A DNA stretch of 49,044 nucleotides, the filler included, from Catajapyx aquilonaris (Eukaryota), in NCBI GenBank assembly GCA_000934665.2. It is 2 parts of 2 records of this genome, joined end to end, with 100 filler letters (N's around TTAATTAATTAA, not from the genome) between each part and the next. Parts side by side here need not be neighbours in the genome. Positions count along the whole stretch, not along the records: positions 1 to 23,354 come from JYFJ02005700.1; 1 more part is not named here. The stretch is one strand, 5' to 3'. The notes beneath the pieces are model-generated. The model was not told the origin of the DNA. It saw only the letters and a list, made by a program, of their open reading frames with translations, and did no database searches. The position numbers were made by a program, and so were the translations under genes. How positions within the stretch are numbered: position 1 is the first letter of the stretch; each line of letters opens with the position of its first letter. This document shows positions 1-44,200 of the stretch, piece by piece.

Positions 1-94
1 TTTATTAGTTCATATGTTGGGTTAGCTTGCGTCTCCCTTCATCGCTGACTACCCCTCATAGGGAAATGTCGTGATGTTGTTGTTGTTGTTGTTG
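1..94 (+). mobile_element. 3' end of an RTE-family non-LTR element with (GTT)n tail, truncated by the window start
   Basis: Closely matches the reverse complement of 43123-43210 (ttgggttagcttg...catcgYtgactaccccTYatagggaaatgt), the 3' end of the TSD-flanked RTE copy; ends in gttgttgtt. Confidence 0.7.
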
Positions 95-4419: not shown

Positions 4420-4939
4420 CAGGGGGAGGTGGGGGATAGGGAGATAATGTTTTAAAATTATAATTTTCACAAGTTCAGTGTGATGAGCAAAGTTATTCGG
4501 AAGATGTATCCACTTGATTGATGGTACCTGATTTTTTAATCAATGTCAAGCAACCTTGAGTATTACCCTTAGTTGCATGTAGTGTAGTCTGGAAAAGTGG
4601 TTATGATGTGTAGCCTACATTTAGCTGTCCTACTTAGCAAGGAGTGTGTGATGTCATGATTAGCGTGCGAATAAAGGGCGTGATTTCAAATATCCTCCTC
4701 ATCCCCTTGCTTCCTCCTACCTGCATCCTCTGTGCTGCTTCGGAGGGAGTTGCTACTGAAAATAGCTGCGAATCCCAGCAGCCCTGAAAATGCGAGCAGA
4801 GGGGGATTGGGGAGGGGCCAACTAGAAATGGATCTGTCGAGGAAATAAAATAATAAATGCCTGTCTAAGATTCTTCACTTGACATTCTCTTACTCCCCAA
4901 ACTCCCTTGTTTTCAGCTTCCGTCTTCATCCTTGGAGGG

Positions 4940-5205
4940 TTTGGTTTGGTTTATTAGGAAGAAGCCAAAGCAACTGTGGCTATCTGGCTGTAGAAGAAGC
5001 AAAGGTGGGACAGATGGAGAGAGAAACGAAGAGGAAAAAGAAGAGAGGAAAGACTGGTATCTCTCTTAGTCTGTCTCCTATCCCAAAGACCTGTCCGGCT
5101 TGGGAGGCCCTACCAGTAGACGAAGCTACCGCCGGCATAGCTCTTGGGGTCACGGGAGAAACGCAAACCCCACCACCACGATAAGGTGGAGATACCATCG
5201 GGGGG
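4940..5205 (-). mobile_element. 266-bp non-autonomous SINE-like retroelement with an RTE-type 5' head
   Basis: Perfect 14-bp direct repeat tcatccttggaggg at 4926-4939 and 5206-5219 (TSD). Minus-strand 3' tail aataaaccaaaccaaa. 5' head caccttatcgtggtgg...ggtttgcg...ggacaggtc resembles remembered RTE (Rex3/Expander-type) 5' ends. Confidence 0.8.
5055..5205 (-). ncRNA. Putative HDV-like self-cleaving ribozyme
   Basis: Minus-strand order fits the HDV fold: P1 cccccc/ggtgggg, P2 tggtatctc/gagatacca (9 bp), P3 acc/ggt closing L3 ttatcgt, extended P4 (gtttct/ggagac, gacc/ggtc, ccggc/gccgg, ggtag/ctact), J4/2 gaCtaa with candidate catalytic C at 5069. Confidence 0.65.
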
Positions 5206-6427
5206 TCATCCTTGGAGGGAATTTTCACTTTTGACCTATACTGTAGTAGAGATCTTTCCAGGCAATCAGGCATTAATTAAAAGCAATTGCTCATTCCCTT
5301 GCATATGCAGGCAAGGTAAGGATGTCATAATTCTGGTTTGTTGTTGAACGCGAGATTCATGACCAGAGAAGTGTAGTACTTACAATAATTAGTGTCGAGA
5401 TTGCCCTCCTGGTGCGCTCCAGTCCATGACAAGCAGCGCCTCCAAACGGACAAGACGTGTTGAAACATTGTACTGAGGGGGGAAGGCGTCTCGTTGTGTT
5501 CAGTACATTAAACCGTCGCATTGCTCATCTCTCTGTACACGCGTCCATCCTCAAGTGTTGCGGGAACTTGACCCAAGCTGCCAAGCAGAAGGAAGATTGC
5601 AACGATCCATACTGGCAGATGAGGCACAAGAGCTGCAGGCGAGGTAGCAGTGAAGGGGCTTTATTATACTCTAGGCCTAGGGACTAGGCTGCAGTGCCAT
5701 TTGCATGGAGTCATACACCAATATCTCACTGCATAATAATGAAATTTTATGAAATTTTAAGTTAATTGCTGGACGTTACTTTGGACATTAAAAGCGCTTC
5801 GTCATTTATCCCAGATTAACTCCCAGCTGGGTTTTAAACATTTGCAATACTTACATACTGTAGTCAAACTCATTTTTATGGTAATATGTTAATGATTTAT
5901 TGTAAATCACATATTTAGCAATAATAGCGTTATACTTTCGTGTGTTACAGCCTCAAGAGGATACGTGACAACCTGCCTAGCCTTATTGTGTTCTGCTGCA
6001 CATGACCAGTAAGCAACTTTTGAGTATGATAAGTCATACAGTAAGATCCTTCTCACCCTTACACAATGAAGCCTTCCCCAAATTACATAAAGGAACCTCA
6101 CCCTTCCCTTCTCATTATTTTTTAAGAGTAGACACCTTGCGGGAAATCTGCATGATAATCAATATTAGCTCAGGGTATCAAAATTATTGTTGGTTCTTGT
6201 GCAACCTGTTTATATATAGCCAAGTCAAGGTCTGCGCAAATATTTCTGATTTAATGTACAGGAGGTTTCACTGTGCTGAAATTTATTTAGCCCCTACAAG
6301 AAATAAAGTTCTACTTTCAAGCTAGTACTACCATGTAACAGTCAATTCAGTTTGCACACCATGCATGTTTAGTTTAGGAATATGAAATATAATATGTACA
6401 AGTGCATACTTTTGGTTTCTTCAGATC

Positions 6428-7930
6428 ATGCCTAGAAGTAAGAAGCCCAAGAGTTTGAGGAAACTAAGCATGAATTGCTTGATCAGCACAATTTTGAAGG
6501 AATGCCAAGAAAGTGATGGCAAAGACGTGGAGCACATCTGGAAGAAAGTGCATGATATTCCATCCATATTTGCCAATGAATACATGCATGATCTGTTGAT
6601 GATAGCCTCGAGAAGTTGTGACAAGATTAAACTACGAGGTGCATTTCATTTCTACTGCACTCAGATAGACTTAGAGGAAGCAACATTTGAACTTTCGCCA
6701 AGAGTATTTGACCAACTCTTTGCCAATATGGATATGCTAATGAATCTGGGAGTGCTGAAGACTGGTCATCCTAACATGTTAACTACTGGAGTAAGATTTG
6801 CTTTCTCCAGAATGCCGAAGCTCACTTGCCTCCATTTGCCATCTCCGTTACATCCGGGCACTGTGAGCAATATTATCCGAAACTGCCCAAGGTTGGAGGA
6901 TATTCGTTTGAGATACATTTCGACGAAGGAACTGAAGTCCCTACCATTCGAGTGCAATAAGCTAAAGAAAATCGAGCTTAGGAAAGAAGAATCATGGATT
7001 CCTACTGGTGTTGCCATGCATCTGCTAGAGAATCTTCAGAATCTCGAATCACTGCGAATTGATAACATGGTTGGGATGCTCGAATTGTGCACAGACGTTT
7101 ATTCTCTAAAAGACTTTGTCGAAGACGTTCATCCAAGAGACTCAATGATGCTGATCAAGTTAGTCTACCACTTCCCAGAACTTCATCACCTCTCACTGCA
7201 ACTGCGCTACAGGAACCTGGACCTCTCGCCTGTAAACACGCTAGTCAACCTCAAGAATTTGGAGGTTTCACATGGATCTGCTACCAGCTTGATTTGCCTG
7301 ATTGATGTCTGTTTCCCTCGTCTGATTGCTTTCAGTTGCAAAGAAGTAACCGAACTTCACTGCCTCTTTGGACCGGACATTAACCTGCCAGGTGTTAAGT
7401 CTATCAAGTTACAGCAAACTGGTCTAGTTGACTTGCCTACCATTGGTGAGATTTTCTCTAACCTGGAAAGGATAGAATTATTGGATGGTAATGTGTACAC
7501 TACACTCCCGCACAATATGTCAGACATGTTTCAGGATTTGACAACTCTCAAGACCTCTTCATTGCTAGTGACGAGGCAAATGTGCTGCCTCATGCCTTCT
7601 GGCCATAAGCTGAAAACACTGCACGTGCATGATGAATCTTGTGATGAGCATGATTTCCTGGATCTACTTCAGGCTCCTTCACTGCAAAAGTTGCATACAT
7701 TGAGCTTAACCTCTGCTGATCAAGTAGTCACAAAGGCAATGGCATCTCATATTCTCGAGTCACTTGGAGATGATTTGTGTAAGCTGACACTAAATAGCAA
7801 AATTATCAGTATGTCAAATGCTGAGTACTTAGCACTGGAAAGGGAGCTACAGAAGTACGACATGAGCTTTCATCTGAAGGATGGTCATTATTGGCCTTGG
7901 ATGTGTATGTGCATTTGTAGAGGAGGGTAG
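6428..7930 (+). CDS. 500-aa leucine-rich-repeat protein with N-terminal BC-box-like motif (putative cullin-2/5 adaptor)
   Basis: One long ORF with repeated LxxLxL units (CPRLEDIRL, CNKLKKIEL, FPELHHLSL, LVNLKNLEV, FSNLERIEL). N-terminal SLRKLSMNCL fits (S/T/P)Lxxx(C/S/A)xxxL. Acceptor ttcttcag just before the ATG implies a non-coding 5' exon. Confidence 0.8.
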   Translation: MPRSKKPKSLRKLSMNCLISTILKECQESDGKDVEHIWKKVHDIPSIFANEYMHDLLMIASRSCDKIKLRGAFHFYCTQIDLEEATFELSPRVFDQLFANMDMLMNLGVLKTGHPNMLTTGVRFAFSRMPKLTCLHLPSPLHPGTVSNIIRNCPRLEDIRLRYISTKELKSLPFECNKLKKIELRKEESWIPTGVAMHLLENLQNLESLRIDNMVGMLELCTDVYSLKDFVEDVHPRDSMMLIKLVYHFPELHHLSLQLRYRNLDLSPVNTLVNLKNLEVSHGSATSLICLIDVCFPRLIAFSCKEVTELHCLFGPDINLPGVKSIKLQQTGLVDLPTIGEIFSNLERIELLDGNVYTTLPHNMSDMFQDLTTLKTSSLLVTRQMCCLMPSGHKLKTLHVHDESCDEHDFLDLLQAPSLQKLHTLSLTSADQVVTKAMASHILESLGDDLCKLTLNSKIISMSNAEYLALERELQKYDMSFHLKDGHYWPWMCMCICRGG

Positions 7931-9056
7931 AGGAGCGTTTACATGGTCTTGAAATATGGTATATCATAGATTGCCATAGTCCTGTTACAATCATAAATAG
8001 TTTGGTGGAGTTTGCATATCTTGCTCAATTTCTGAATATTTGAACTTATCATAATTTTAGAATTCGCTGTAGGTCAATTTGCAAAATCATTGGTTTAATA
8101 TTGATCTCTCCTGAAACTTTTGGTTTGATCGTGAAGAATTATTATTTTGCAATTTTTGGCATGAGGTTAATGCCATACAATATCTTTTGCTGTCTGGTGC
8201 CCTTGTGAATTTATTGACTAATACAAACTTTGTGATGTTGGCGATTGTGTAGCAATTAGACATGGTTTGAGATTTTAAAAATAACAAAATGTGACTGTTA
8301 ATTTTTGACGTTTCTGATAATCCACATAATTATCATTATGTGGCTGATAACAGATTAAGTTCCTGAACCTGAAGACAAAATTGATGTTCAGGAACCTCAT
8401 TATATGTTTATTTTGTCTCCCCCCCCCCCCCTTATTTTGCCAGCTTCTGTGGCCAAACATTATGTGAACNTATGTGAACACCTGTGCACCTGTTTCTTTC
8501 TAGTTAGTTTATTACATCTTGCCTAATTATGTTTCACGGATAATGAGAGAATATCATGGTGAATAAATATAGTCAAGCTGATCTAGCATTTTTCTTTTCG
8601 GTTACTGGCAACAATGCTGGTGATAATGGAGCATATAGCCTGGCTCATGAAGCTTACTATTTTCGAAAGTGGCGCCAAAGAGTGTGTCAGATGGGCAGCA
8701 CCTGTCGGATAAGGCATGCAACATAATTAAAAATCAAATTAAAAACATCGGGGGGATAATCTCCCTAAAAACATTCCCTGCAATTATTCAGTTTAAACCC
8801 CGAAAATATTAAGTCTTAAGAATGTCATTTTAACAAGCATGGCCCGAGCCTAGTCTGACTGACCATCTGTTGATAGTGTGCTGCCTGGAGGGAGACGTCT
8901 CCAGAAATTCTTCAACAAATTCTGAGATAATCAGGTAGAAAACTAGAGGCAAATTTGTGTGAAACTAATTAGGCACAATAACGCAATTAAATTAACATCC
9001 TCTTCGTAATTTCCAGGCCGTTTGCTTCATTTAATTGACACTTGAGATAGGCTGCG

Positions 9057-10738
9057 ATGGAAGAGGAATCCGGACCACCTGATGCAAAGAGGCAAAAGCT
9101 GTCAATAAGTGAACAGGAGGTAATAACAATTACAGCTGGTTGTGTCGGGAAATAATTACCTGATTAATTATGCATTTCTAGGGGAATATTCTTCCGAAGG
9201 AGTTGCTGCTGAAGATATTCGGATACCTGTTGAAGCCTGACCTGGTGAGGAGTGTGGGCATGGTGTGCAAGTATTGGAAGGAGATTGCCACGGACTCGAG
9301 TCTCTGGCACGAGGTTACGTTGTCGGGGTTCGTAGGGGATGATCCGGATAGTGTCACCAAAGTGATAGAGGGGATGACGCAGTTGAAGAGATTCACAGCC
9401 AAGTGTGTTCGGCCGTGTGAAGCAGATGTGTACCTGGATGCCATAGGTACGCAGTTGGAAGCGTTGGACTTGGACAGCCTGACGCTTCATGAGGAGCCTC
9501 TCTCTCGGCTTGCAACTAGATGTCCAAATCTCAAGCAGGTATGCCTGTGCAGGTCTGCTCATCTTAGCATCGTAATGCAAGAAAATGCACAAGAACGAAC
9601 CAAGGTCATGCCGTTTTCATACAATGCAATGTTTAGAACTTTATGAGTAGTGTATGTGAGCTGGTTTGTACTATCAGTCCAACAAGAATTGTCGCAGCGG
9701 CAGCTCACGAACTACAATCTACGAGCACGGGGACACGAGAGACTGTAGTTCGTGCGCTGCCGCTGCGACAATTCTTGTTGGACACCAGGTACCACTTCAG
9801 AACGTATGGAAGTGTAATGGAAACACAGTGTTGTGGGATGTTTCTAAATCAAGTCCTCTCTCCTGCAGGTTTGCATTAAACGATGTACCATGGCAAGAGG
9901 AAGCCGACATCCACTGGATATATTCGCATCGTGCCCAAAGCTGCAGTCCATTTCACTTGATGGAATCAAAGGAACAACTCGCATCGACCCATCGACTCCA
10001 CGACGTTGGGATAAGTTGCAGGAAGTTTACATCGACACAGACCTTTCTTCATCTGATGCGGAAGTGAAAGTACTGGCAGAACGTGTTGGTTCACAGCTGG
10101 TTAAGTTGACAGCAATGAGACTGCTTGTCCCAAAGTCATACGCACGTATTGGTCAATGTTCAAACTTGCAAGAACTTCACCTGATGCGGAATACCAGCAT
10201 GACAGACTCTTGCCTCTTGAATGGGCTGTCACCACTTCAGAATCTCCACAAGTTGTCCCTGCGAGTTGCATTATATCTCACTCCAGAAGCTATGCGTCAA
10301 TTCTTGCAAAGACCATACGAATTCAGGCATCTTCAGTTTCTGGATCTGTACTCTACCCTAGGCATGAATAGCTCTTGCTTGTCCATACTTGCAAAAAATT
10401 GTCCGCATCTGACCCATCTGATTCTGGATGAATATCAAAGGAGTTCATCAATTGCTAGGCTGAAAAATGCAGCTAAAGGCTTGGGGAAGCTGAATGTGAT
10501 ACTCAGGGGACTAGATACTAAGAATGAGGATAACCGACAACAACTGCAAGCATTAAATCCAAGTCGTAAAAGGGAAAGCTCGCCCCTGCCTTCAAGATGT
10601 TTAGTTTGTAGCGGTAAGTCAAGAAGAGAGAAAGGGAAACTGCTCCATAGTGATAGGTACAAACGTGCACTGAAATTCGCAAACATGCGAATGCGATCTG
10701 AAATGCGTAGTAGGAGGGTACGTTTCCATAGTCGATAA
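9057..10738 (+). CDS. F-box/LRR (FBXL-like) protein copy A, about 429 aa
   Basis: Exons 9057-9119, 9182-9538, 9869-10738 (phase 0, GT-AG). F-box LPKELLLKIFGYL..PDL..SVGMVCKYWKEIA.DSSLW; LRRs CPNLKQV, CPKLQSISL, CSNLQELHL, CPHLTHLIL; NLS-like PPDAKRQKL. Probable 5'UTR intron 8935-9016. Confidence 0.9.
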
Positions 10739-11925: not shown

Positions 11926-14900
11926 ATGGAAGAGGAAGCCGGACCACCTGATGCAAAGAGGCAAAAACTTTCACTAAGTAAAGAGGAGGTAATAACAATA
12001 ACAGCTGGTTGTGTCGGGAGATAATTACCATGATAATTATGCATTTCTAGGGGAATATTCTTCCGAAGGAGGTGCTGCTGAAGATATTCGGACACCTGTC
12101 GAAGCCTGACCTGGTGAGGAGTGTGGGCATGGTGTGCAAGTATTGGAAGGAGATTGCCATGGACTCGAGTCTCTGGCACGAGGTTCAGTTGTCGGGGTTC
12201 GTAGGGGATGATCCGGGTCGTGTCACCAAAGTGATAGAGGGGATGACGCAGTTGAAGAGATTCAAGGCCCAGTGGGTTCGGCCGTGTGAGCCGGATGTGT
12301 ACCTGGATGCCATAGGTACGCAGTTGGAAGTGTTGGACTTGGACAGCCTGACGCTTCAAGAGGAGCCTCTCTCTCGGCTTGCAGCTAGATGTCCAAATCT
12401 CAAGCAGGTATGCCTCTGCCGGTCTACTCATCTTAGCATCGTAACGCAACGGAACGCACAGTAACAGGTCTTGCCATTTTCATACAATGCACCGTTCAGA
12501 CCTTCAGACCAAAAACAATTTTTAACGCAGTCAGTTCCTATTCCTATTGCATTTTCTGAACATTTTCCCAATAAGATACGAGAAAAAAATTATATAGTTT
12601 TAAAAGATTGACAAAATTAATGACAAACAACCAACATTAGTACCCAATTGGTGCTACAAAAGCAGAACGGATGAAACCTGAAAATTTAAATACCACTTAA
12701 TGGACCACTAACATAGTCCTCTATCCTCAAAATAATGTTTTATTAAATTCCTCTCAGAAGACAATTAAAGATAAATGAAATTATTTTTGAATGCCACCAA
12801 TCCAGGCATGGGGCTTGCTCCTTCCCTTCTTACCCACTAGCATGGTACCTCGCTATTCTAGATTTTAAACTGAACTGTATACTTAGTGCAAAGCTTGGTG
12901 CAAAGCGCACTTCCTTATGGGTGTACATCAGGTACTTAAAGAAGAGCCACAGCCCATTCAGCTAAAAATAATAATTTCGGATGTCCATTTATATGGGCAT
13001 TTTTGGTCTCAGGAAGAAAAGAAAATTACAAGTTCTCTACAGCAACAAAGATTGTCACAGACACATCCTTTCGTATTCCCTAATGCACATTCCTTGCGAG
13101 TCCCAGGACATTCACTAAAAATCGCACTCTAAATATGAGTAAAAAATTAAAACTTATCAGATGAGCCCCTAGCTTATTCAGCAGCGGCATCCACCATTTT
13201 CATGGGTGATTTAATTTTCGAGGCCCAAGTCAGATATTCGACACTAGGTGGCTACACCATCATATGCACCACCCCCGCCCCCATCCGTACCGTCGTTTTA
13301 AGGTGCATTCACATATCCATGATTCCATATTAGAAGCCGTTCAAAATTCGACCACAATATATTGATTATGCAATTGAATTTTCCATTATAGCATCGTTCC
13401 AAACAAAGGGTCACCAACACACAGCACCGTTCCAAACAAACTGTTACCAACACAGCAGCGTTCCAAACAAAGGGTTGCCAACACACAGCACCGTTCCAAA
13501 CGAAGTGTTACCAACACACAGCACCGTTCAAACAAAGGGTTGCCATTGAACACAGAAGGTTCCAAACAAAGGGTTACCAACCGGTTACCAACACACAGCA
13601 GCGTTCCAAACAAAGGGTTGCCGACACAGCAGCGTTCCAAACGAAGGGTTACCGACACACGGCTGCGTTCCAAACAAAGGGTTACCAACACAGCAGCGTT
13701 CCAAACAAAGGGTTGCCAACACAGAAGGTTCCAAACAAAGGGTTACCAACACACAGCAGCATTCCAAACAAAGGGTTGCCAACACAGAAGGTTCCAAACA
13801 AAGGGTTACCAACACACAGCAGCGTTCCAAACAAAGGGTTACCAACACACGGCTGCGTTCCAAACAAAGGGTTACCAACACAGCAGCGTTCAAAACAAAC
13901 GGTTGCCAACACAGAAGGTTCCAAACAAAGGGTTACCAACCGCACAGCCACTTTCTCAACAAAGGGCTGCCAACATTTTTTTTCCCCATGTGTATGTGTA
14001 TGATTAGCATTGGACATGTTCATCGTGATTATCCAAATGCCTGATTAACGTGACCATTGACATTCCGAGTAATAGAAGTCAGTGCTAATTAATTCTCACG
14101 AACATTAACTATGGTAGCATTTGAAAGGTCGTACATTTCTACACCCGTGCATAGGACAATTTTTTCGAAACTGCAGTGACCGAATAGGAAGGATGGGTGT
14201 GGATGGAACAGAGGGAAGGGTCGATTTGACGGCGGAGACGACCAGTGTTGTTAATGTACGGAAAACGAGAGAACGATCTGCCGTCATCGTTTCTTACATT
14301 GTTGCTTCTTTGTTGACACTGTTGACTCATATTGTTCTGTGGGGGTATTTCCACGAAAACCTTAGTGACGTCAGATCGTTCTCTCATTTTCCGGGAGTCA
14401 GATGACATGTTATGGAGAACTTCGAGTTAGGGAAGTTTATTTCCTATTCTTTTACATTGTGACCAACCAAGCTCATCATTTTCTTCAACTTATAGAGAAC
14501 TTCGACTTAGGGAAGTACGACTTATAGAAGTTTTACTGTATGCATTTTGGATGAAGGATTCTGAACCTGTAGTAATGGAAACACAGAGTATTGTGGGATA
14601 TATTACTAAGTCAAATACTCTCTCCTGCAGGTTTGCATTAGACGTTGCAGCATGGCAGGAGGAAGCCGACATCCGCTGGATATATTCTCACAATGCCCAA
14701 AGCTGCAGTCCATTTCACTTGAAGAAATCAAAGGAACAACTCGTATCGACCCATCGACTCCACGAAGTTGGGATAAATTGGAGGAAGTTGACATCAACAC
14801 AGACCTTCCTTCATCTGATGCGGAAGTGAAAGTACTGGTAGAACGTGTTGGTTCACAGCTGGTTAAGTTGTCTGCAAAGAGACTCCTGGTTCCAAGGTCA

Positions 14901-15512
14901 TACGCACGTATTAGTCAATGTTCAAACTTGCAAGAACTTCACCTGATGCAGAATACAAGCATGACAGACTCTTGCCTCTTGAATGGGCTGTCATCACTTA
15001 AGAATCTCCACAAGTTGTCCCTGCGAGGTGCTTCGTATCTCACTCCAGAAGCTATGCGTCATTTCTTGCAAAGACCATACGAATTCAGGCATCTTAAGTT
15101 TCTGGATCTGTACCATAACCTAGGCATGAATGACAATTGCATGTCCATACTTGCAAATAATTGTCCTCGTCTGACCCATCTGATTCTGGATGGATGTCAA
15201 AGTTTCACATTTGCTGGGCTGAAGAATGCGGTTCGAGATTTATCTGATCTGAGGAAACTGAATGTGATACACAGTAAAGTAAGTACTGTGAATGAAGGTC
15301 AACGAAAAGAGCTGCAAGCATTAAATCCAAGACTTAAGGTTGAATGGAAAGGGTGCACCCTGGCTCCAAGATATTTAGTTTGGAGCCCTCCGTCAACTAG
15401 AAAGTATGAGAACATGTTCCAAAGTGAGAGGGGCCAACGTGCATTGAAATTCGCGTCCATGCGAATGCAACCTGTTGTATGTGTTGAGAAGGTACGTTTC
15501 CATAAGCAATAA
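11926..15512 (+). CDS. F-box/LRR (FBXL-like) protein copy B, about 433 aa
   Basis: Exons 11926-11988, 12051-12407, 14631-15512; same structure and high similarity to copy A; intron 2 is 2223 bp versus 330 bp in A. Confidence 0.9.
13395..13975. repeat. Minisatellite, about 18 units of mostly 30-33 bp
   Basis: Consensus ttccaaacaaagggtt(a/g)ccaacaca(ca)gcagcg with a recurring variant ending cagaagg; lies in intron 2 of F-box copy B and is absent from copy A. Confidence 0.95.
14410..14540. mobile_element. Right end of a pogo/Tigger-like MITE fragment
   Basis: Ends ...ttcgacttagggaagtacgacttatagaagttttactg followed by TA; internal repeat gagaacttcgaSttagggaagt near 14415 and 14495; matching left end not found. 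Confidence 0.4.
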
Positions 15513-18060: not shown

Positions 18061-20311
18061 TTATGAGGACTGTAGTTCCAGCCGCTTCTCCTCCATGAGC
18101 TGATCGCGTTGGTTGTGCACGTAGTCCAGGATGTTGGGAAGTCCTCGGACCACCGAGGCTGACAGGCCAGAACGTCGTAGGTTCATGTTGGTGCCATCAC
18201 GCCAGTGGTTGCAGCTCTCATAGAAGCACTCGACTCGTGACGTGGTGACTCTGCCGTCCCAGCCTCCCATGACGATGATCATGTCGTCCATCACCACCAC
18301 AGCGCAGTTGGTCCGGGCATAGTGCATGTCTGGGACCGACTGCCAAGCGTTGTTCTCGGGATCATATTTTTCTACACTCCGCAGGTACGTTTCACCGCTG
18401 AATCCACCGATGGCATACACCCACCCGTTGTAGGCCACGCACTTCAGACCTGATCGTGGAGTGCTCATGGCGCGAATAATGGTCCACCTGTCAGCTACTG
18501 GGTCATACACCTCTGCCAAGTCCAGCCTGAGATCCCCGGAGAATCCTCCAGCCACGTATATCTTACTACCGATAGTGGCAGCCCCAACGTCCGACCTTAT
18601 CACGTTCATCGGCGCTATGAAGCTCCACTTGTTGGTCTCGAGCTGGTACTTCTCGACAGTGTTTACTCTGTGCCGCCCATTGTGGCCACCGATGGCATAA
18701 ATTACATTGCCCAGCACCACTACAGTGACGTAGCACCTGTGGACATTTTTTTTATTGCAAAAGTATGAAATTATTTGTATACTGTCAACCCAAGTGCACA
18801 ACACATAATCGGACATACATACAAACGCACATCATTTTAATTTTATACAGCAGATTTATTTGTTTATGTTACTTTGTTCAAGTGTGAGGTTTTTTTTAGG
18901 TTTTGGATTTTGGTATTTCCGGACTTATTTGGCTTTTTGTTGGCTGACAGCAAGGCAAAATGTAAGCTCAAAGTTACTAACCTGGGGGTTTTCATAGGGG
19001 CAATATCCGTCCACTCCTTGGTTACAGCGTCAAAGCAGCGGCAAGATTTGAAGACAGTGTTGTTTAACTGTCCTCCTATGACATATATCTTGTGGCCAAT
19101 GACAGCAGCGGCGTGACATGACCTTGGTCCCTCTGTGTCCATTTCCCCTACCTCCAGCCATCGATCTGCTCGGACATCATACGTCTCGATATAGTCAGTT
19201 TCTCTGTTAGTAATCCACCCTCCGATGGTGAACAGGACATCACTAGGAAGGCGGGGTCGTGCCAGGTATGGTGTGGGCATTGGCTGTTTCCTCACGGTGA
19301 TCATGTCCATGTCATACAAGAACTTGAGCGTGTCGATGATGATAGGACGGCACTCGTCACTTCCCAAGACATAAGGATGAGGCTTGACAATATCCAAGAA
19401 CACACTGGCATCCATGAGCCCTAATCGCACTGCCCTTAGCAATTTGGCCATGTGCACCCGGCGTTCACTCGGATTAACATTGACCCATTTGACCACTGTA
19501 TTCCACACCACCTCCTCATCCTTCACGTTCAGCTCATCCCAAACTGCCAAAAAGAAACTTTGTTACTATCAAACTATCAGATCCATGCACTGTGTTGCAT
19601 ACTGACACAGGATGGTAGTGATCCTCTCGATTGACAACTCAAGCAGCTCTTCGGACTCATCTGCGACTTCTTCAAAGTGTCTCGTCAGGAAAGTCGTTGC
19701 AGCAGTGTGAAGCTTTTGGGCTAGGGGAAAATTGCTGGAAAGAGTCCATCGCATGTACAGTACTAATGGATGAATCTGAGTGGATGCCATTGCAGAGATT
19801 AATCACCATTGACGAACTGACCATACCTTGCAAAGTTCCAGATACCAATGCAGTTTGAGGGATCAATCTGCTTCTGGAGGAAGAGGCAGCAGTGTTGAAA
19901 CAGGCCCTCAAGCTGCAGGTAATCTGCGGCCACCAGCAAATCCTGCACGTTTTCATTAGAGATATTTGCTCGGCGTGTGTACACAAACTCCATAATCAGA
20001 GGCATTGTGTTTGAACTGACACCTTGAATTGTGACGTCCCACTTTTCCCGGTCATAAATTGGCGACAGGAAGAGTGATTGTAGAAATGGGGAGGCAGTTG
20101 CAAGGATGCCTCTGTGGACCTGGAAGACTCCTCCATCGTCGAGGCGAATGATGCCGTCGCACAGCATGCGGTTTGTGTACATGTCATAGTATACGTTTGT
20201 GTCACTGACTGACCTGGCATGCTTTGGTGACTGGTACAGGCTGCGGTTGGTGCTCCTCGTCACTTTCTTCTCCATGGCTAATCTCACTGAGGCTCCTCTT
20301 ATTGCTTCCAT
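18061..20311 (-). CDS. KLHL10: Kelch-like protein 10 (BTB-BACK-Kelch, cullin-3 adaptor), about 616 aa
   Basis: Exons 20311-19827, 19734-19607, 19543-18982, 18736-18061 (1851 nt, phases consistent). BTB LCD..I....G.F.VHR.ILA..SPF; BACK DELNVKDEEVVW; KLHL10-typical CRPIIIDTLKFLYDMDM...TP..ARPR.P..VLF.IGGW...IETYD.RADRW; kelch GG repeats. Confidence 0.92.
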
Positions 20312-20960
20312 GGATAAATCACTGACCTTTTGCTAGTTGAAGTCCTGGCTGCTGGTTATCACAGAGATATAAATCCTTTGAAGATGTATGAGACTCGCTA
20401 TGCTGCGGTGAGTATATCAGGTTTTGACAACAAGTAGCCAATGCATTCTTATGGAAACCATATTTTATTCAAAAATTAAGGATTTGAGGGTGACAATGAA
20501 CGGCTGGACAATACTGAAATAATTACATAGGTGAAGACACTAACTATTGTAGGCTAAGTCACGAAGTAAATCACATTATTTTAGTGAAAGCTGTTTAAAG
20601 CAGACCCTTTGTACAGTATAATTGGACCGTAGTATGCAATAATGTGTCAGGCTGGACTGTCAATTTTTATGTGTTTACGTTAATTCACTTAATGTAAACA
20701 CAAATTGACGTCACAGTAATTAATGATTCAAGTTCGGAAAATATTTTATGCCAAAACCAGAAAAAAGAAACTATTTTTCAGCACTTTATTTCTTCATGCG
20801 AGAGGCCAGCCTGTAGTTGGGTAGGCAGATCAACTGGCAGCAAGGTGACAAAAATATTAAAAGCAATGATAATATAGTGAGTTCTAATGTGTGTCTTTCT
20901 ATAGCTAATGTCTTCTTCTGACCGTGAAATCATGTGCTTGTGAATGCTTAATTAGCCAGC

Positions 20961-23000
20961 TTAATTATTCATTCTCATAATATTTTTTTTAGTTCTGCCC
21001 TTTGCACTAAACTTCTCGACAGCGAAAACCAAAGAGATGCATCCGTAGCTAATGAGCGTTCCCAAGAAGAGACCTTTCATCTGATTGAAGTTCAACGCAA
21101 GGGACGGGGTTGGCAGCAGATACCCCTTGTTTCTGGCCTCTAAAACCTTCATGTCGTACACTACGTCGAGGGTGTACTTGTCATAATATTCCAGCAAACC
21201 GGCTGCTTCCATGCGCAGCATAATGCAGTCAAACCTCGACAAGAGGATGTCATGCTTAGGAACCATAACTGCAAGTGTAAACTTGGTCGCCGTGACATCC
21301 AACCAGGTGAAGGGCAAGTTTCCAACCATGTCCAGGTGTTCATAAGCGGCTCTCAGGATCAAGAACGTGGCACTTAAGCAGGAGAAGTCCTCGGTCAGAG
21401 TCTCCAACACGCATTCCTCGATGGTGTCCTTCATTTCCAGTAGGTCAGCCATTCTTCTGTGACTCTCAAAGTCCGACTCGACCAACAAGGCCTGAGCTAA
21501 TAGCCCATGTCGAGCTAAGCTTCCCCATTTCCATCCATGTCGCGTTGTCAAATCCTCAATGTCGCTGTAACAAGTGTAACAGAATTTCTTTACTACGTGG
21601 CTACGTGGTGGAGCTCAAAGAGAGTATCCGAATTAGTGGACCGAGTGCATCTGGTCGTGGCAAAGCCACAATAACGTTCGTTAGCCTGCTGCTCCACAAG
21701 GCGTATTCTACAGTAATTTTTGCGGTTACATAATCCGCAATTGAAAGGACACCCCACTCAAAAACCAAGTTTGGCTCTAAAAATCGGGCAAAAAATCCTG
21801 AATCCGAAGGTGCAATCCGTTTTTCGCTACACGGAACGGTAATCCCAGGGCGAGGGGTCAAAATGATGAAATTCAAATAGTGCGCTAGAAACTGGCCGTC
21901 CGCTAGCGACGCCCTCGGGACCTTGGGAACTGGAGGGCTGCTCCCGCCTGCCCGCGGCCCATCCCAGAGCGGTGCAGCCCTCCAGTTAACCTGTTCCCCG
22001 CGTGGTGGCGCCCCTCATTAGTAGACGACACACTTTGACACCTCGCCCTGGGACTACCGTTTTGCGTAGCGAAAAACGAATTGCACCTTCGGATTCAGGA
22101 TTTTTTGCCCGATTTTTAGAGCCAAACTGGTGTTTTGAGTGGAGTGTCCCTTTAACTAAAATATCGTACCTGGGAAGATGCTCGCGATCTGGAGTGGCTA
22201 GAAATCCGATGAGTTTGGCTGTGTATCCGCAGGTGATGACCACTGCGAATGTCCACCAGAGCGACAGGAACATCCGGGCAGAGTGTGACCTCGGGACAAG
22301 GTTTGGGTTCTCCTCTATCAGGGTCAACAGGACGTAGGTCAGTGAGTATGGGTACAGGGAAGGAGGTTCCTTGGGAAATGGGTAGGTTACCTTCTTGATG
22401 GTGACCACCAGGAGACGCCAGAGGAATAGACTTCCGATGATGCACGAAATGGCAATGAGAATCCACATTCCAGGGGTGTAAGGTCTGATGATGACATCCC
22501 AGGAGTCGATTATTCGCGGTTGTCGGAAGAGGAATGTTCCGGCTGTTGTGTAGTACGGGTAGCCGTACTCTGTCACTTCCAAGGGTGGAGTGAATGTGAC
22601 GCAGGCAGGACCTATGTCGCATTCTCCGTACAGCACGGCCCCGACCAATCCCATCCACGTTCCGTCGTCCATCTTTGGGTCGGTGGACACTGCATTTTCC
22701 ATTTTGGACACTCGGAAGTCAAAGTTCATGTAGGTGCTCAAATCCAGAAACACGAGCTCAAACACGTAGAGATGTCGTCGCTCGAACATTCGCTGCAAGA
22801 TTGTTGTGTGATCCGCTTCGAAAGCGATGTAGCAAATACCAGAGATGGTTCTCCCGTGGAGGTCAAGGGTCATGTCTGGGAACAGTTGGGTCAACATTGT
22901 GGCGTTTGAGTCGATCTCGACTATCTCAGGCTCCCCGTTGTTGCAGAAGAAGCAGGTTGACGAGAGTGAGGAGGTGTTTGTATCCACCACAAGCTTGTAT
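20961..23000 (-). CDS. Divergent ionotropic receptor (IR/iGluR-like chemoreceptor), 5' end unresolved near the gap
   Basis: Exons 23000-22170 and 21564-20961 joined in phase 2. Motifs LFPD...DLHGR, DGTWMGLVGAV..GECDIG, IIRPY...MW, SHSARMFLSLWW.FAVVITCGYTAKLIGFL, MEAAGLLEYY, L.FNQMKGLF. Confidence 0.85.
21745..22151. mobile_element. Kolobok-like MITE with about 117-bp TIRs in the IR intron
   Basis: Left arm aaggacaccccactcaaaa...gggcgaggggtcaaa is the reverse complement of 22035-22151 with few mismatches; flanked by TTGA/TTAA; internal 14-bp inverted repeat 21928-21941/21974-21987. Confidence 0.8.
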
Positions 23001-23354
23001 CTGAAGAAAAATAATTGGAACTATCGATGAATACGAGAGCAACCAAGTGCGCACCCACACTAGCGCAGCTGTTGTTCTGACAACAACGTTGACATAGATA
23101 TTCCCCATATTAGCCAAATTCACACCCGTAGCATGGAGACGCAAACATTCGATTCGCTCGTCTCTCTGTTTGGGCCGTTGCCAAGGCTGGCCATTTTGAA
23201 GCGGGGGAAACGCCAACGAGGTATGAATAGGGTACAGGCAGGCCGTAAAGGTCCGCCATCTTTGATGGTTTTGGCGGCCATGGCACTTCACGGCAAGAAC
23301 ACGCGCGAATTCGAATGTTTTTGCCGTACTTACGGAATTAATATGTAGAAAAAG

Positions 23355-23454
23355 NNNNNNNNNNNNNNNNNNNNNNNNNNNNNNNNNNNNNNNNNNNNTT
23401 AATTAATTAANNNNNNNNNNNNNNNNNNNNNNNNNNNNNNNNNNNNNNNNNNNN
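23355..23454. other. Artificial scaffold gap (44 N + TTAATTAATTAA + 44 N)
   Basis: Exactly 100 positions with a central six-frame-stop linker, i.e. a contig-joining spacer. Confidence 0.95.
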
Positions 23455-41200: not shown

Positions 41201-44200
41201 AGATTAACAAGTCAGAAACCTGCATGAAGGTAAAGCATGGTGGACCATGAACATTGGAACCCAGTACATTCTTTTAAAAATTGGTGCAGGCTCCAGGAAA
41301 TGCAGCATGATCACAGTCATGCAGACCTCATCTGCATACCTTACTATAACCTTCTGAGCCTTCAGCCTAGTCGAGGGCTCCAGAGCAGCAGCAACCTTCT
41401 TCATTGCTTCTATGCACTCACGCTGCTTTTTAAGAGAAGCAGCCTTAACTGCTACATCAGCGAGATGTTCTTCCAGGGAATGATGTGTCTCTACTGCAGG
41501 CAAAAGGACATCCAAGCTGGTAGCCTGCTCCAACATCTCCTTCTCCTTCCCTTGAAATACGGCCAGCTTTAGCTTCACAATCTGAATTGGAATCTGCCAA
41601 AGAAGATTTTCCTCCTCAGGGTCGTTCACATTCGCAATGACTGCCTCAGCTCCATCCATCATTCCCTCTTCCATGAGGCACTCGGCTTGGTTGCACCGCA
41701 TTTGTATAGCGGCCCCAATGTCCCCTGTCTTGCTGGTAATTTCGGAAAGAATAGCATACCAGCACGAAGCTTGTAAAAAGGATTTATTCTCCTGGAACTG
41801 AACTGCTAGATCTGAGGCCAGGGCTATTATGGCATTGAGCCCATCTGCAATGTACAAAAAATTATAAATGCCATGTTAAAATAACATTAAATTAACATTC
41901 AAATAACATATGAAAATAACAAATCAAAATGAAAAATAAATAAAACCATTTCACCAAGCATAATACAATCCTTCTGGTTGAAAATTTTTCTGAAATACTA
42001 TTACACAGAAAACATGCTCCCTAGCTCACCCTGGTTGCTGCTTATTGTGGGGCGCCGTGCAACTTCTTCTAAAATGGTCAAAGCCTTGTCAAAAGACTCT
42101 ATTATGCCTGTGTAGAATACAAAGCGATACCTAATATGCCAGTTGTCATCAGAAGCAGTGGCCTTGTCAACCATTTCCATTGCCAAGTGGTACTCTTTAT
42201 GGTCAATCAGAAGCTTGGTGATCTGTTAAATGATCAAAAACAAAGGGTGCTTAAAAGGTGCTTGTTGTCACCACTCATGGTGTCACAGGAAATTCTCATG
42301 TGGAACAAACCTTTATCAGATCATTTCCGGAGATATCAGGAAGCTGTCGTATATGGTTTAAACCAGAGCAGATACCCAACTCACTCTCTTCTTTCTGGCT
42401 CGCCATCAAGGCTTTCACTCGTAAATAGAGAAGATCAAAGGACTCCCTCTCTGCAATAATAATAGTGGTCAACTACAGTAGTTATGCTGTAACCTGTATT
42501 TTTAAAAGACTAGCTATGCTTGCAGAGACTTCTCAATTTACTGACAAAGGATGCAATCAAATGTTCCCATATTATGACATAACGTGGGTGGAAATGAAAA
42601 TATTCTTGACAGAATGGTGCCTGCAACAACTGAGTCAACTTGAGGAATCAAATTACATGGTATGTTTGTTTTGTATGATTATAAATAATGTAATTAATCA
42701 TATATAGAATTGGCTTTGGTCTATGCCTCTGTCCAGGGAAGTCATCATCTCTGACCCGCTAGGTGCATGTAGTACACTTTTTGGAGTGTCAGACACAGCC
42801 TCCTCAGAAAACATTGTTCAGCAATGAAAAAGACCTTACTATAATTATTATCACATCACAATCTGTGAATACTTGAGAAAAAGACACCATCTGCTGGAGT
42901 CAAAATCGAATAATTTCGTCTTTCATCAACAGAAATGATGGGGCAACTGAAAAGTAATAAGTACCTGATAGAAAAAGTGGTCTCCTCAGAGCATTCAGGT
43001 AGTTTTCTTTTCCACTGTATTATATCATATCTCAATGGTACAATGCAAAGCTATTATTTGTATGTAGCAAGTAACTTAGTTCTTCCAACTTTCAAAAGAT
43101 TGCCAGTTATTTGTTATATTATCATCATCATCATCATCACATTTCCCTATAAGGGGTAGTCAACGATGACGGGAGCCACAAGCTAACCCAAAATATGAAC
43201 TAAATTAAAACTTGTCAAAATAAACCTATGAACAACCCGTCCCGCCCCCCTCTGCCCATCTCAGACGACAAACACTCAATATTAAATTTAACTATTACAC
43301 TATACAACGTGGTACTTTGAGAAATCAAGTATCTCCCCCCCCCCACCCCCCTGGAAGAGGAATCAGCAACTGTTAAATTCCTCCAAGTGACTGGAATATT
43401 CTCCTCTAAACGACCAGAACACCCACAGGCCAGCGAGAAGAACCAGCATACGGAAATCCACACCCGAACTCCAAGTACTGTGCAGGACAGAGAGAGAGAC
43501 AGGCATCCTTACAAGCATGACTACCGGTGTCAACCTATGCATTACTGTGCAAGAGATATATTTGCCAACCTTGTAGTTCTGCACAGCACCCAGACCCCGA
43601 GTATGAACCTCCAGACGCCGACTCCTCCCACCAACCTGCAAACATTCTAGCCAATCAAAAGAATTCAATGGGCACTGCCATTCCTCACAAACCCGTGAAT
43701 ATGCTACCCATTAATTAACCTACGCCATTTACACCTATCCAAACAAACAACCTTAGCCTCAGCCACGTCCATGGTCCTATTGACACATGAACGTCTCGGC
43801 TTAACACTAGCAACACCCTTAAGACACTGACCCACTTTATTTGTTATATTATAATGCCAAAAAAAGCTAAATTGTCCAGAGCCTGTTATTATTGGTCAAA
43901 TATGTCACATAATCATATAACTAACAGTTTGGTCCAAGTATCACAAATTTAACCCAAATAAGTTGTCATTTTTGTGTAGCTTCTTGCTCTCCATAATATT
44001 ATACACGAGGTGCCCAATTATGCTGTATAAAAGCTGCTATATTTGACCCAGCAACCTGGTAATATTGGGTTCCTCAATTGGGGTGCAAAACGCTACACAA
44101 ATACAACAACTTTGGCCAATGTTTGCCATAACTAATAGGACACGGATACTTGTCACACCCTGTATCTGCACTAAACTAAATAAGTCATCCATTGTAGAGT

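Follow-up and report, generated by a model that had tools for sequence, protein, structure and literature searches.

The locus examined here raises the question of whether a short, non-coding retroelement could make the 5′ end of its own RNA by self-cleavage. The element lies on the minus strand of a Catajapyx aquilonaris window (the whole stretch of DNA that was analysed, 49,044 nucleotides with filler), and all nt numbers below count along that strand, with nt 1 at window position 5205. The reading that we favor, albeit with reserve, is that of an abundant non-coding, LINE-dependent retroelement whose head, from nt 1 to about nt 73, folds as an HDV-like nested double pseudoknot and is predicted to cleave itself.

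The insertion and its family

The insertion, which an earlier note had described as a retroelement flanked by target-site duplications (TSDs), has the following parts.

4940..5205, minus strand: non-autonomous SINE-like retroelement of 266 nt, one copy of a high-copy family
4926..4939, no strand: TSD, left copy (3′ side of the element), TCATCCTTGGAGGG, exact 14-nt direct repeat of 5206-5219
5206..5219, no strand: TSD, right copy (5′ side of the element), TCATCCTTGGAGGG, exact 14-nt direct repeat of 4926-4939
4940..4949, minus strand: (CCAAA)2 tail, CCAAACCAAA, read from the sequence, of differing length among copies
4950..4955, minus strand: AAUAAA hexamer directly 5′ of the tail, read from the sequence
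4963..4989, minus strand: 3′ stem-loop, nt 217-243, in both the minimum-free-energy and the centroid folds of the whole element

The two TSD copies are 100% identical, no longer direct repeat occurs within 4500-5700, and on the minus strand the tail CCAAACCAAA runs straight into the TSD, whose start is C-rich. The expected tail of simple repeats is likewise present, as (CCAAA)n at 4940-4949. As had also been claimed, there is no credible open reading frame; the sole frames overlapping the element run from stop to stop, at 111 and 98 aa, and they are not credible in a 266-nt high-copy repeat. We regard the stem-loop at 4963-4989, a feature of the folding models, as a candidate recognition hairpin for a partner reverse transcriptase.

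The element at 4940-5205 is the sole copy within the 49-kb window, and its abundance is apparent from contigs of other data. Contig pieces aligning to a 751-base stretch around it numbered 1,356 in run X1 and 1,287 in run X2, and the summed depth from this contig alignment was 38,000-121,000 inside the element versus 34-250 in most flank bins; by the same measure the head exceeds the single-copy flanks a thousand-fold or more. In X1 the depth is lower near the 5′ end, at 52,000-62,000 over 5142-5193 against 89,000-121,000 in the body. Loose contig ends with unrelated flanks occur at exactly 5205 (16 contigs in X1, 16 in X2 and 160 in run X6) and also at 4938/4948, so that the ends of the family are the ends that the TSDs define, and the variation in tail length is seen in X1, where loose ends begin at 4948 in 22 contigs and at 4938 in 27. 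The check proposed earlier on copy number and shared 5′ ends thus came out in favor of a high-copy family with 5′ ends shared exactly at 5205. Short, non-coding, bounded by TSDs and a simple-repeat 3′ tail, multi-copy, with shared ends and 5′ truncations, the element belongs among the non-autonomous non-LTR (SINE-like) retroelements.

Two more organisms, one represented by X6 and the other by a metagenome, have other families that are headed by its first ~80 nt. In X6 the similarity is limited to 5101/5125-5205, at very high depth. The metagenome family was encountered by scanning with a 21-base head pattern, which matched four metagenome contigs (L001-L004), 0 genome contigs and 0 viral contigs; these four share nt 0-92, and their four unrelated upstream flanks diverge at the base of the P1 helix described below. 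Each of them stops near nt 92, and the comparison with the metagenome family is confined to that stretch, short of the body and the 3′ half. A second pattern of 22 letters matched 0 viral contigs and a single genome contig, L005, which was dropped as a chance match inside an apparent bacterial protein-coding frame. In the literature we found no description of the family, and the SINE-linked HDV-like ribozymes of Ruminski 2011 and of Webb and Luptak 2011 could overlap with it; searches with three short head strings returned, judged by titles and abstracts, only papers on topics other than retroelements or ribozymes.

SINEs are classically built this way, with a head of ~80 nt common to families of several species whose bodies differ, and it could be asked whether this is simply an ordinary pol III SINE, its head descending from a small RNA that divergence or restriction to one lineage has made unrecognizable. 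We consider this very improbable. ARAGORN found no tRNA in the window, Rfam returned no match to tRNA, 5S, 7SL, U-snRNA, Y, vault or other small RNA at E up to 10, the best match to a pol III A-box plus B-box carries 5 mismatches and was equalled in 1,601 of 2,000 shuffles, and the RNA of such a SINE would begin with a run of C. A head derived from tRNA or 7SL with pol III boxes had been named beforehand as the outcome that would speak against a ribozyme; what was found is a head without likeness to tRNA, 5S, 7SL or snRNA and without boxes beyond chance, and the small-RNA-derived head and internal pol III promoter of a SINE in the strict sense are therefore both missing from these results. Two resemblances were set aside along the way: words in the head that resemble U1 snRNA are not colinear on either strand and had no Rfam U1 match, and a tRNA-like reading of plus strand 5133-5205 gave no ARAGORN tRNA and A/B boxes no better than those of shuffles.

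The partner that had been suggested for the element fared less well. What had been taken for RTE pieces, at 1-94 and 43123-43837, is the 3′ end of another tailed retroelement in two copies; no reverse-transcriptase domain or protein homologue was found in them, nor any similarity between them and the element, nor RTE coding sequence near or linked to the element. RTE as the mobilizing partner is unsupported.

Layout of the head

Read from nt 1, the head and the sequence downstream of it offer the following parts, all on the minus strand.

5200..5205, minus strand: P1 5′ strand, nt 1-6 CCCCCC, pairing with nt 33-38
5189..5197, minus strand: P2 5′ strand, nt 9-17 UGGUAUCUC, identical in the window and L001-L004
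5175..5187, minus strand: P3, nt 19-21/29-31 ACC/GGU, 3 Watson-Crick pairs around L3, nt 22-28 UUAUCGU
5168..5174, minus strand: P1 3′ strand, nt 32-38 GGUGGGG, directly after P3′
5166..5167, minus strand: J1/4 UU, with U39-A24 (5182) as a weak P1.1 beside U23.U40
5148..5165, minus strand: short variable P4 region of the compact model, nt 41-58, 6 of 18 columns differing between families
5144..5147, minus strand: proximal J4/2 CCAA, nt 59-62, matching CNRA, with C59 = 5147 as candidate catalytic C
5133..5143, minus strand: proximal P2′, nt 63-73 GAG[CU]AUGCCG, 9 pairs formed with nt 9-17, interrupted by a 2-nt bulge
5066..5069, minus strand: distal J4/2 CUAA, nt 137-140, with C137 = 5069, visible in the window family only
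5055..5065, minus strand: distal P2′, nt 141-151 GAGAGAUACCA, 9 contiguous pairs with nt 9-17 (nt 143-151), plus C18-G141 with A142 bulged

The 5′ strand of P2 is able to pair with nt 63-73 or with nt 141-151, and the nested double-pseudoknot order P1-P2-P3-L3-P3′-P1′-(P1.1)-P4-J4/2-P2′ is found both with the distal parts and in the compact version. In either case P3′ abuts P1′, J4/2 abuts P2′, and P2 has the expected length of at least 5-6 bp; the compact version leaves C18 unpaired between P2 and P3. The part order that the earlier note had read on the minus strand (P1 nt 1-6/33-38, P2 nt 9-17/143-151, P3, L3 and C137-U-A-A) is indeed present, and the fold does start at the element's 5′ boundary, P1 beginning at the first base, 5205. 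The cleavage site that this fold predicts would lie immediately 5′ of 5205.

The extent of the fold is another matter. An extent of ~150 nt with C5069 had been claimed, and while that order exists in the sequence, the part conserved across organisms is only ~73-80 nt long and has its own CCAA and P2′. As these conserved ~73-80 nt hold a complete compact layout, the catalytic C is more likely 5147 than 5069. Departing from the earlier extent, we would place the conserved ribozyme, as judged from the sequences, in the compact 73-nt version, with a putative catalytic C at 5147 and P2′ at 5133-5143; the 96 nt proposed as P4 probably belong to the body.

It is nonetheless fair to ask whether the exact 150-nt layout could be the functional one, with a 96-nt P4 rod, catalytic C137 (5069), the distal P2′ at 5055-5065, and the proximal CCAA and P2′-like stretch as no more than part of P4. 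Its distal P2 is the better helix, having 9 contiguous pairs and C18-G141, and the layout satisfies our first descriptor, which was modelled on the published form with insertions. By themselves, nt 41-136 fold into a single long, imperfect hairpin that is closed by UCUCC/GGAGA, with pair probabilities of 0.83-0.97, and a T>C variant common at 5058 (45% of the X1 depth) converts U12-A148 to U12.G148 and so preserves the pair. Against this, the sequence common with X6 ends at about nt 81-105 and the metagenome family was followed to nt 92, such that the distal half is seen in the window family only; the conserved head already has a complete CNRA and P2′, and the differences between families obey the compact model. 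Single copies without 5034-5069 or 5031-5065 exist, and one X5 contig lacks exactly the CUAA. We thus hold the 150-nt layout to be distinctly unlikely. A likeness between the distal J4/2 plus P2′ and the proximal set (10 of 14 identical) was considered as a sign of duplication and discarded, being expected by chance in 266 nt, and a hairpin of nt 42-44/52-54 was rejected as a conserved P4 stem, given that 2 of its 3 pairs are broken in the metagenome family.

Returning to the compact version, its proximal P2 consists of 3 + 6 pairs, with 100% of cells paired in the window and L001-L003. P3 and L3 are invariant in 5 of 5 aligned sequences. The proximal J4/2 is CUGA in the relatives, and between families only the N and R positions of CNRA change.

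Set against the reference descriptor for HDV-like ribozymes (PMC4870747 supplement), the head failed the strict published form at four points: a C at +1 with a C-G pair, an A at position 3 of L3, a J1/4 that starts with U, and P2/P4, where both versions need a bulge in P2 and the 96 nt of the distal P4 exceed the allowed 54. L3 agrees with the published TYYHCGY at 6 of 7 positions, the exception being this A in place of a pyrimidine. The +1 closing pair is C-G in all three families, not the purine...pyrimidine combination (G.U in HDV). A first base of C is compatible with activity, since the active L1TcRz also begins with C; in excerpts of PMC3185411, both L1TcRz and NARTc cleave before C, and primers that take in 10 nt preceding the cleavage site finish with ...CCCTG. 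As to P1.1, the A-U pair is retained in 4 of 4 distinct sequences, with its purine/pyrimidine orientation flipped relative to the descriptor (J1/4 = RN). The same excerpts give the P1.1 of L1TcRz/NARTc as a single pair (PMC3185411), and fast ribozymes whose P1.1 is U:A plus either U:U or C:U are described, with active structures of the U:A plus U:U type solved (PMC13635239).

Covariation, folding controls and a possible non-cleaving head

The bulge or mismatch that had been noticed in P1 of the window copy is there: nt 1-6/33-38 pair with one C.U mismatch, or else as 6 bp with U34 bulged. In the relatives the 5′ strand of P1 is 7 nt long and pairs fully (CCUCCUC in L001-L004; CCCCACC, CCCCAUC or CCCCACU in X6), which makes P1 7 bp long in L001-L004 as well as in 75 X6 contigs. 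An A opposite U34 is present in those 75 (34 + 17 + 24), and the window and 160 other X6 contigs are without it. The depth-majority form in X6 also carries a P1 mismatch or bulge. The window copy may be impaired by this defect. Excerpts of the work on R2 ribozymes describe P1 or P2 as often mismatched and P4 as variable or absent, and link P1/P2 mismatches to loss of in vitro activity (PMC3774820).

Comparison of the families bears on whether P1 is a true helix. P1 covaries, as CCUCCUC/GAGGGGG in the metagenome versus CCCC(A)CC/GGUGGGG in the window and X6; column 6/34 passes from U-A to C-G with both sides changed, and one further pair is changed on one side. The covariation check was therefore positive for P1; P1.1 shows no covariation, A24-U39 being invariant. 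Within families, U39C, which would break P1.1, is carried by 3 of 3 contigs of run X5 at the site and by ~3% by depth in X1. Between families 9 of 55 core columns differ, against the 6 of 18 in P4. Within the family, 23 variant sites are listed for the element, with 22 more beyond that list; of those listed, the core of 55 nt has 1, P4 with its 18 nt has 4 and the remaining 193 nt have 18, P4 (5148-5165) thereby holding 4 of the 5 listed head variant sites. The substitutions that separate the two families steer clear of the constrained positions: when 9 random substitutions were placed in the 55 core columns, they matched the observed ones in compatibility with the fold in 684 of 200,000 simulations.

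The site was originally picked from a very large scan, and both descriptors and the compact model were written after the sequences had been seen; both points count against the ribozyme reading. With the first, relaxed descriptor, the 49-kb window, searched on both strands, gave the element head as its only locus. Of 20,000 dinucleotide shuffles made from the 170-nt head, 16 matched it, and 1 did so anchored at nt 1; in shuffled window the background was 5 matches per Mb. As ~0.5 matches are thus expected per window, the match alone is not significant, though its position at the element boundary is. The second descriptor found one locus in 98 kb, recovered both 3′ halves at the element, and recovered the compact form in all three metagenome copies long enough to test. 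Shuffling the 90-nt head 20,000 times gave it 0 matches, and shuffled window sequence gave 2.65 loci per Mb. On the window and L001-L004 the compact model pairs 97.2% of 71 cells versus 41-59% with the partners slid; its formal shuffle control (125 of 500) is weak, only two independent sequence families being alignable.

The folding energy was no better than that of shuffles (z of -0.27 for 154 nt, -1.07 for 266 nt and -0.83 for 75 nt) in minimum-free-energy folding, which cannot represent pseudoknots. Unguided, RNAalifold predicts the proximal P2 and P3 within a plain nested, Y-shaped fold made of a P2-like stem, the P3 hairpin and a G-run/C-run hairpin; in this competing hairpin the P1′ G-run pairs with C57-C60, including the candidate catalytic C. 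Rfam includes models of mosquito HDV-like ribozymes. Searches of both strands with 451 and 168 bases at E up to 10, using covariance models that are family-specific and cannot encode pseudoknots, gave no significant family, and among the weak matches listed (10 and 4) none was an HDV-type model; the covariance-model check for HDV accordingly came back negative.

A rival reading is a head that is a conserved, structured 5′ module that does not cleave, serving as a promoter of another type, a binding site for a LINE protein or a protection of the 5′ end, its resemblance to HDV being partial and fortuitous. The want of an Rfam match, the non-consensus C at +1, A24 and U39, the nested Y-shaped output and the several alternative pairings that the C-runs and G-runs permit would all suit such a module. 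The nested fold, however, leaves the C-rich 5′ strand unpaired, and with it the U-A to C-G exchange and the A opposite U34 go unexplained, as do the restriction of CNRA changes to N and R and the placement of the family 5′ end at the base of the P1 helix in three organisms. We consider a non-cleaving module unlikely, and an HDV-like head remains our preferred reading.

Proposed mechanism and known systems

If the compact head is a ribozyme, the life cycle of the element can be sketched. Transcription would probably be passive, from host or neighboring promoters, after which the head would cleave itself immediately 5′ of nt 1 with C59 (5147) in J4/2 as the general acid, and the copies would owe their uniform 5′ end to this step. 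A LINE reverse transcriptase could then use the 3′ stem-loop and the (CCAAA)n tail for target-primed reverse transcription, which would in turn generate the 14-bp TSD. In the window family, the distal J4/2 and P2′ (C5069; 5055-5065) could replace the proximal set. More tentatively, and with less than even confidence, one may think of a SINE-like superfamily in several insect-type genomes, of very high copy number, in which a compact HDV-like ribozyme, its cleavage-site pair (C-G) and its P1.1 pair both reversed, acts as an exchangeable head in place of a pol III promoter; some of its families would have two alternative 3′ halves that could form a folding switch, and sense copies in introns would be potential self-cleavage sites in host pre-mRNA.

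Should the head cleave, this would be a high-copy, multi-species short retroelement of animals that overcomes its lack of a promoter by way of an HDV-like ribozyme, a solution documented so far mainly for LINEs, rDNA-specific SIDEs and the trypanosome NARTc. It would also be a naturally occurring HDV-like variant in which +1 is a pyrimidine and the P1.1 pair is flipped, and would place very many potential self-cleavage sites in host transcripts, which bears on intron processing and on the origins of SINE heads. If the head does not cleave, the element is an ordinary repeat, abundant and with a 5′ end that is structured and conserved.

On balance, the element is probably a new addition to the ribozyme-terminated non-autonomous retroelements, of which NARTc and the SIDEs of R2 are the nearest examples. 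Like NARTc of Trypanosoma cruzi, which belongs with L1Tc and its ribozyme L1TcRz (the Pr77 hallmark), it is a short non-autonomous non-LTR element whose HDV-like head is common to other elements; excerpts of PMC3185411 further record a first base of C, a minimal P1.1 and a cleavage that defines nt +1, the last being predicted here. The first 77 nt of NARTc/L1Tc are an experimentally active ribozyme, whereas activity is predicted from sequence in our case, and according to the same excerpts (PMC3185411) those elements belong to trypanosomatids rather than animals, their head doubles as an internal promoter, and NARTc has a poly(A) tail and a known autonomous partner in L1Tc; there is no sequence similarity. 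The excerpted accounts of R2 and its SIDEs in Drosophila and other arthropods (PMC3774820, PMC3414825) likewise describe non-autonomous derivatives that retain the ribozyme, with a P1 of 6-7 bp showing compensatory changes between species, an imperfect P2 and a variable P4 (PMC3774820). As described there, R2 and the SIDEs are specific to 28S rDNA and low-copy, and the SIDEs are internal deletions of R2 (PMC3774820, PMC3414825), while the present element is dispersed in high copy number, its tail resembles a microsatellite, and no parent of it is known.

The HDV-like ribozymes of RTE, Baggins and other promoterless LINEs are comparable by description, in that a 5′ ribozyme goes together with transcription from introns or upstream elements, but the head matched no HDV-like ribozyme family in the two Rfam searches. 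Short, high-copy retroelements with a self-cleaving ribozyme for RNA processing are also known in the Sm-alpha hammerhead SINEs of Schistosoma (PMC6765202), and excerpts on the twister variants in S. mansoni non-LTR elements (PMC8501958) again describe retroelements that carry a self-cleaving ribozyme; both are of another ribozyme class, and for Sm-alpha pol III transcription and a tandem arrangement are described. With classical SINEs the element shares a modular build of head, body and LINE-type tail, as well as TSDs, high copy number and heads common to several families, and it differs from them in a head for which the searches above found neither pol III boxes nor small-RNA homology.

The insertion, its setting and its family

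The 266-nt element sits between the two copies of a target-site duplication (TSD), and its ends are as follows.

4926-4939 and 5206-5219, plus-strand sequence: TSD TCATCCTTGGAGGG, copies 100% identical
From 5205, minus strand: element 5' start CCCCCCGAUGG, read from sequence
4950-4955, minus strand: AAUAAA at the element end, read from sequence
4940-4949, minus strand: tail CCAAACCAAA after AAUAAA, read from sequence

The exact 14-nt repeat and the minus-strand 3' tail bear out the TSD-flanked, tailed insertion described in the earlier note, as does the lack of a credible ORF, the stop-to-stop frames that overlap the element being only 111 and 98 aa long. That note had named a tRNA or 7SL head with pol III boxes as a contrary finding, and none was detected: ARAGORN found no tRNA, Rfam at E up to 10 on both strands returned noise only (no tRNA, 5S, 7SL, snRNA or ribozyme family), and the best A-box plus B-box match has 5 mismatches, with matches as good in 1,601 of 2,000 shuffles.

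The element occurs once in the window (next-best blastn match, 23 nt), the content of which is animal-type and gene-rich (Kelch/BTB, an ionotropic glutamate receptor fragment, F-box/LRR and an MRG exon). Several plus-strand frames at 9182-10738, 14610-15512 and 6386-7930 match F-box and leucine-rich repeats, and from their sequence look like paralogous F-box/LRR gene copies. A BTB-BACK-Kelch gene of at least three exons (18061-20332, minus) is adjoined by the receptor fragment (Lig_chan; 21986-23020, minus); two 44-N runs by the receptor-gene region (23355-23398 and 23411-23454) fall within the filler joining the two parts, and the lone Ns at 8470 and 47879 mark masked or unresolved positions. 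Some 70 nt from the element, 5272-5349 is a second, moderately repeated sequence adjoining the insertion, with a contig depth of 770-2,150 against ~34 in single-copy flank, near-fixed differences in its other copies (5315 G>T, 5317 T>G), and one contig that links 5342 back to 5001.

Logan contigs of four coded sequencing runs were aligned to 4700-5450 at a likeness of at least 80%. Two of the runs, X1 and X2, represent one sample ('organism A') and yielded 1,356 and 1,287 placed contig pieces, respectively, 329 of those from X1 being at least 99% alike. Summed depth, which is not a copy number, is 38,000-121,000 inside the element against 34-250 in most flank bins; contig depth falls toward 5205, the trend that 5' truncation would produce. 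Each run has 16 contigs with a loose end at 5205, and X1 has further loose ends at 4938 and 4948 (27 and 22 contigs); the continuations beyond them are mutually unrelated (agreement 0.37-0.47). Because unrelated loose ends cluster at these positions, the family boundaries are the TSD-defined ends and the tail is variable in length; a high-copy family with a shared 5' end is evident in both runs.

The nested HDV-like layout

The published descriptor for HDV-like ribozymes (PMC4870747 supplement, Figures S11-S14) comprises P1 (R....:....Y), J1/2 of at most 50 nt, a 6-bp P2, a P3 of 3 Watson-Crick bp, L3 (TYYHCGY), J1/4 (RN), P4 and J4/2 (CNRA). The corresponding parts of the element, numbered from nt 1 at 5205, are these.

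nt 1-6 with 33-38, minus strand: P1, with a C5.U34 mismatch or U34 bulged
G7 A8, minus strand: J1/2, read from sequence
nt 9-17, minus strand: 5' strand of P2
nt 19-21 / 29-31, minus strand: P3, ACC/GGU
UUAUCGU, minus strand: L3, fitting 6 of 7 descriptor positions, A24 off-consensus
Directly after P3', minus strand: P1'
A24-U39 beside U23.U40, minus strand: P1.1
5069-5066, minus strand: distal J4/2, C137-U-A-A, in the 3' half proposed earlier
5055-5063, minus strand: distal P2', 9 bp, directly after C137-U-A-A

All parts of the nested order first proposed (P1, P2, P3/L3, P1', CUAA, distal P2') are indeed present from nt 1. Both script descriptors used here, and the compact model, were devised after seeing the data. 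Descriptor 1, loosened to accept any base at +1, a single L3 mismatch, a single bulge and a P4 of up to 120 nt, returned the element as the only locus in the window on both strands; in shuffled window sequence the background was 5 loci per Mb, and 16 of 20,000 head shuffles matched, 1 of them anchored at nt 1. The Rfam covariance models gave no ribozyme match, a point against a ribozyme. The minus-sense start of the target site (5214-5219), CCCUCC, is similar to the element's 5' CCCCCC (5200-5205) and is able to form pairs with the P1' G-run as well, giving alternative P1 registers in the descriptor search; the likeness may reflect microhomology where the 5' end met the target, or else a competing pairing from upstream.

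A variant at 5058 (45%) preserves pairing in the distal P2, as G.U. Deletions of 5034-5069 or 5031-5065 occur in single copies, and the distal CUAA is missing from one contig of a further run, X5. One X5 contig follows the element body to 5043, continues with 23 nt like the extreme 5' end and then enters flank; it may be a short derivative without nt ~21-162, and hence without most of the ribozyme.

The head across species and the compact version

Matches in X6, a run from another study, are limited to 5101/5125-5205, reach a depth of 444,000 and end at 5199-5205. A metagenome scan with a 21-base head pattern found four contigs (L001-L004), which have nt 0-92 in common with the window at a mean column identity of 87%; their four upstream flanks are unrelated and diverge at the same point, and the bodies of this family are unseen because all four contigs stop at ~nt 92. 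Prokaryote-genome and viral collections scanned with head patterns gave no genuine match. A 22-letter match in a metagenome-assembled genome (L005:601-622) lies within an apparent bacterial protein-coding frame, and is a chance match unrelated to the element. Judged from these alignments, the head is a separate module across species.

The metagenome-family P1 pairs CCUCCUC with GAGGGGG (7 pairs, one G.U), and that of the window CCCCCC with GGUGGGG. In X6, 75 contigs (34 + 17 + 24) end as CCCCACU, CCCCAUC or CCCCACC, and a further 160 end like the window; the A in the former faces U34 and gives 7 pairs, the X6 P1' being presumably that of the window, since none of the four X6 variant sites at 10% of reads or more falls in 5168-5205. 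Comparison of these strands reveals a U-A to C-G exchange between the metagenome family and the window, covariation of the kind that the earlier note proposed to look for, and an A facing U34 that only part of the copies carry. The repeat starts at the base of the P1 helix in all three organisms, within one base, the pattern to be expected if HDV-like processing makes the 5' end.

Within the head lies a second 3' half.

5147-5144, minus strand: proximal J4/2, C59-C-A-A (CNRA)
nt 63-73, minus strand: proximal P2', GAG[CU]AUGCCG, directly after J4/2

The proximal J4/2 is CUGA in metagenome copies and in the X6 consensus, differing only at the N and R of CNRA, and the proximal P2' forms 3 + 6 pairs with nt 9-17, interrupted by a 2-nt bulge. 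On this layout the whole predicted ribozyme is 73 nt, matching the size of the cross-species module, with the short variable region nt 41-58 as P4. With the window and L001-L004 aligned, 97.2% of 71 cells are paired under the compact model against 41-59% with partners slid by 1-3 columns; one pair differs at both of its bases and three at a single base. The shuffle control of this comparison (125/500) is weak because there are only two independent families. RNAalifold arrives at the proximal P2 and P3 unguided. Descriptor 2 (linker 0-1 nt; P2 of at least 8 bp with a bulge of 0-2 nt) detected the proximal and the distal 3' half of the 266-nt element, the compact form in 3/3 metagenome copies of testable length and no further locus in 98 kb, against 2.65 loci per Mb of shuffles and 0/20,000 shuffles of the 90-nt head. 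When 9 random substitutions were simulated from the metagenome sequence in 55 core columns, 684 of 200,000 results were as compatible as the window. Among the 23 variant sites listed inside the element for organism A (with 22 more unlisted), 1 falls in the 55 core nt (U39C, in 3/3 X5 contigs at that site and ~3% by depth in X1), 4 in the 18-nt P4 and 18 elsewhere. The conserved part thus appears, on comparative grounds, to be a compact version with its own J4/2 and P2', and the 73-nt layout is favoured over the 150-nt one: the distal C5069 half noted earlier is present, but the cross-species head already holds a J4/2 and P2'.

Weighing the ribozyme, its partner and known systems

Several points argue against a ribozyme. 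The element departs from the descriptor (C at +1 with a C-G pair, A24 and U39 off-consensus, P2 bulged); P1 is mismatched in the window copy, as had been noticed, and in the majority X6 form too, and an R2 study (PMC3774820) connects P1 mismatches with lost activity in vitro. Folding energies are no better than those of shuffles (z -0.27, -1.07, -0.83), and the P1' G-run pairs with C57-C60 in a competing hairpin. These points are softened by precedents: in L1TcRz and NARTc the cut precedes a C and P1.1 is a single pair (PMC3185411), solved fast ribozymes have a P1.1 of U:A plus U:U or C:U (PMC13635239), R2 ribozymes tolerate P1 and P2 mismatches and a variable or absent P4 (PMC3774820), and only about five nucleotides are conserved among HDV-like ribozymes.

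The supposed RTE pieces (1-94 and 43123-43836) that the earlier note mentioned beside a mobilising partner do not support that role. They are two copies of the 3' end of another retroelement; the one at 43123-43837 is TSD-flanked, and its minus strand carries a (GAT)n tail.

43110-43122 and 43838-43850: TSD tttgttatattat, flanking the 43123-43837 element

Its 3' end (last ~80 nt) matches 5-76 in inverse orientation (88.9% over 72 nt), where the copy at the window start has a (TTG)n tail. An RTE partner is unsupported because the frames of the 43123-43837 element gave no Pfam family at E 0.01, one frame had no homologue among longer proteins, and blastn found no similarity to the 266-nt element.

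A description of the 266-nt family was not found in the literature searched, a set that lacked the two most relevant papers. Taken together, we lean toward regarding the element, with its predicted ribozyme, as a new ribozyme-terminated non-autonomous retroelement. Such retroelements are an already known kind: HDV-like ribozymes terminate R2, RTE, Baggins, L1Tc, and the non-autonomous NARTc and R2 SIDEs, and according to a review some SINEs employ hammerhead or HDV-like ribozymes.
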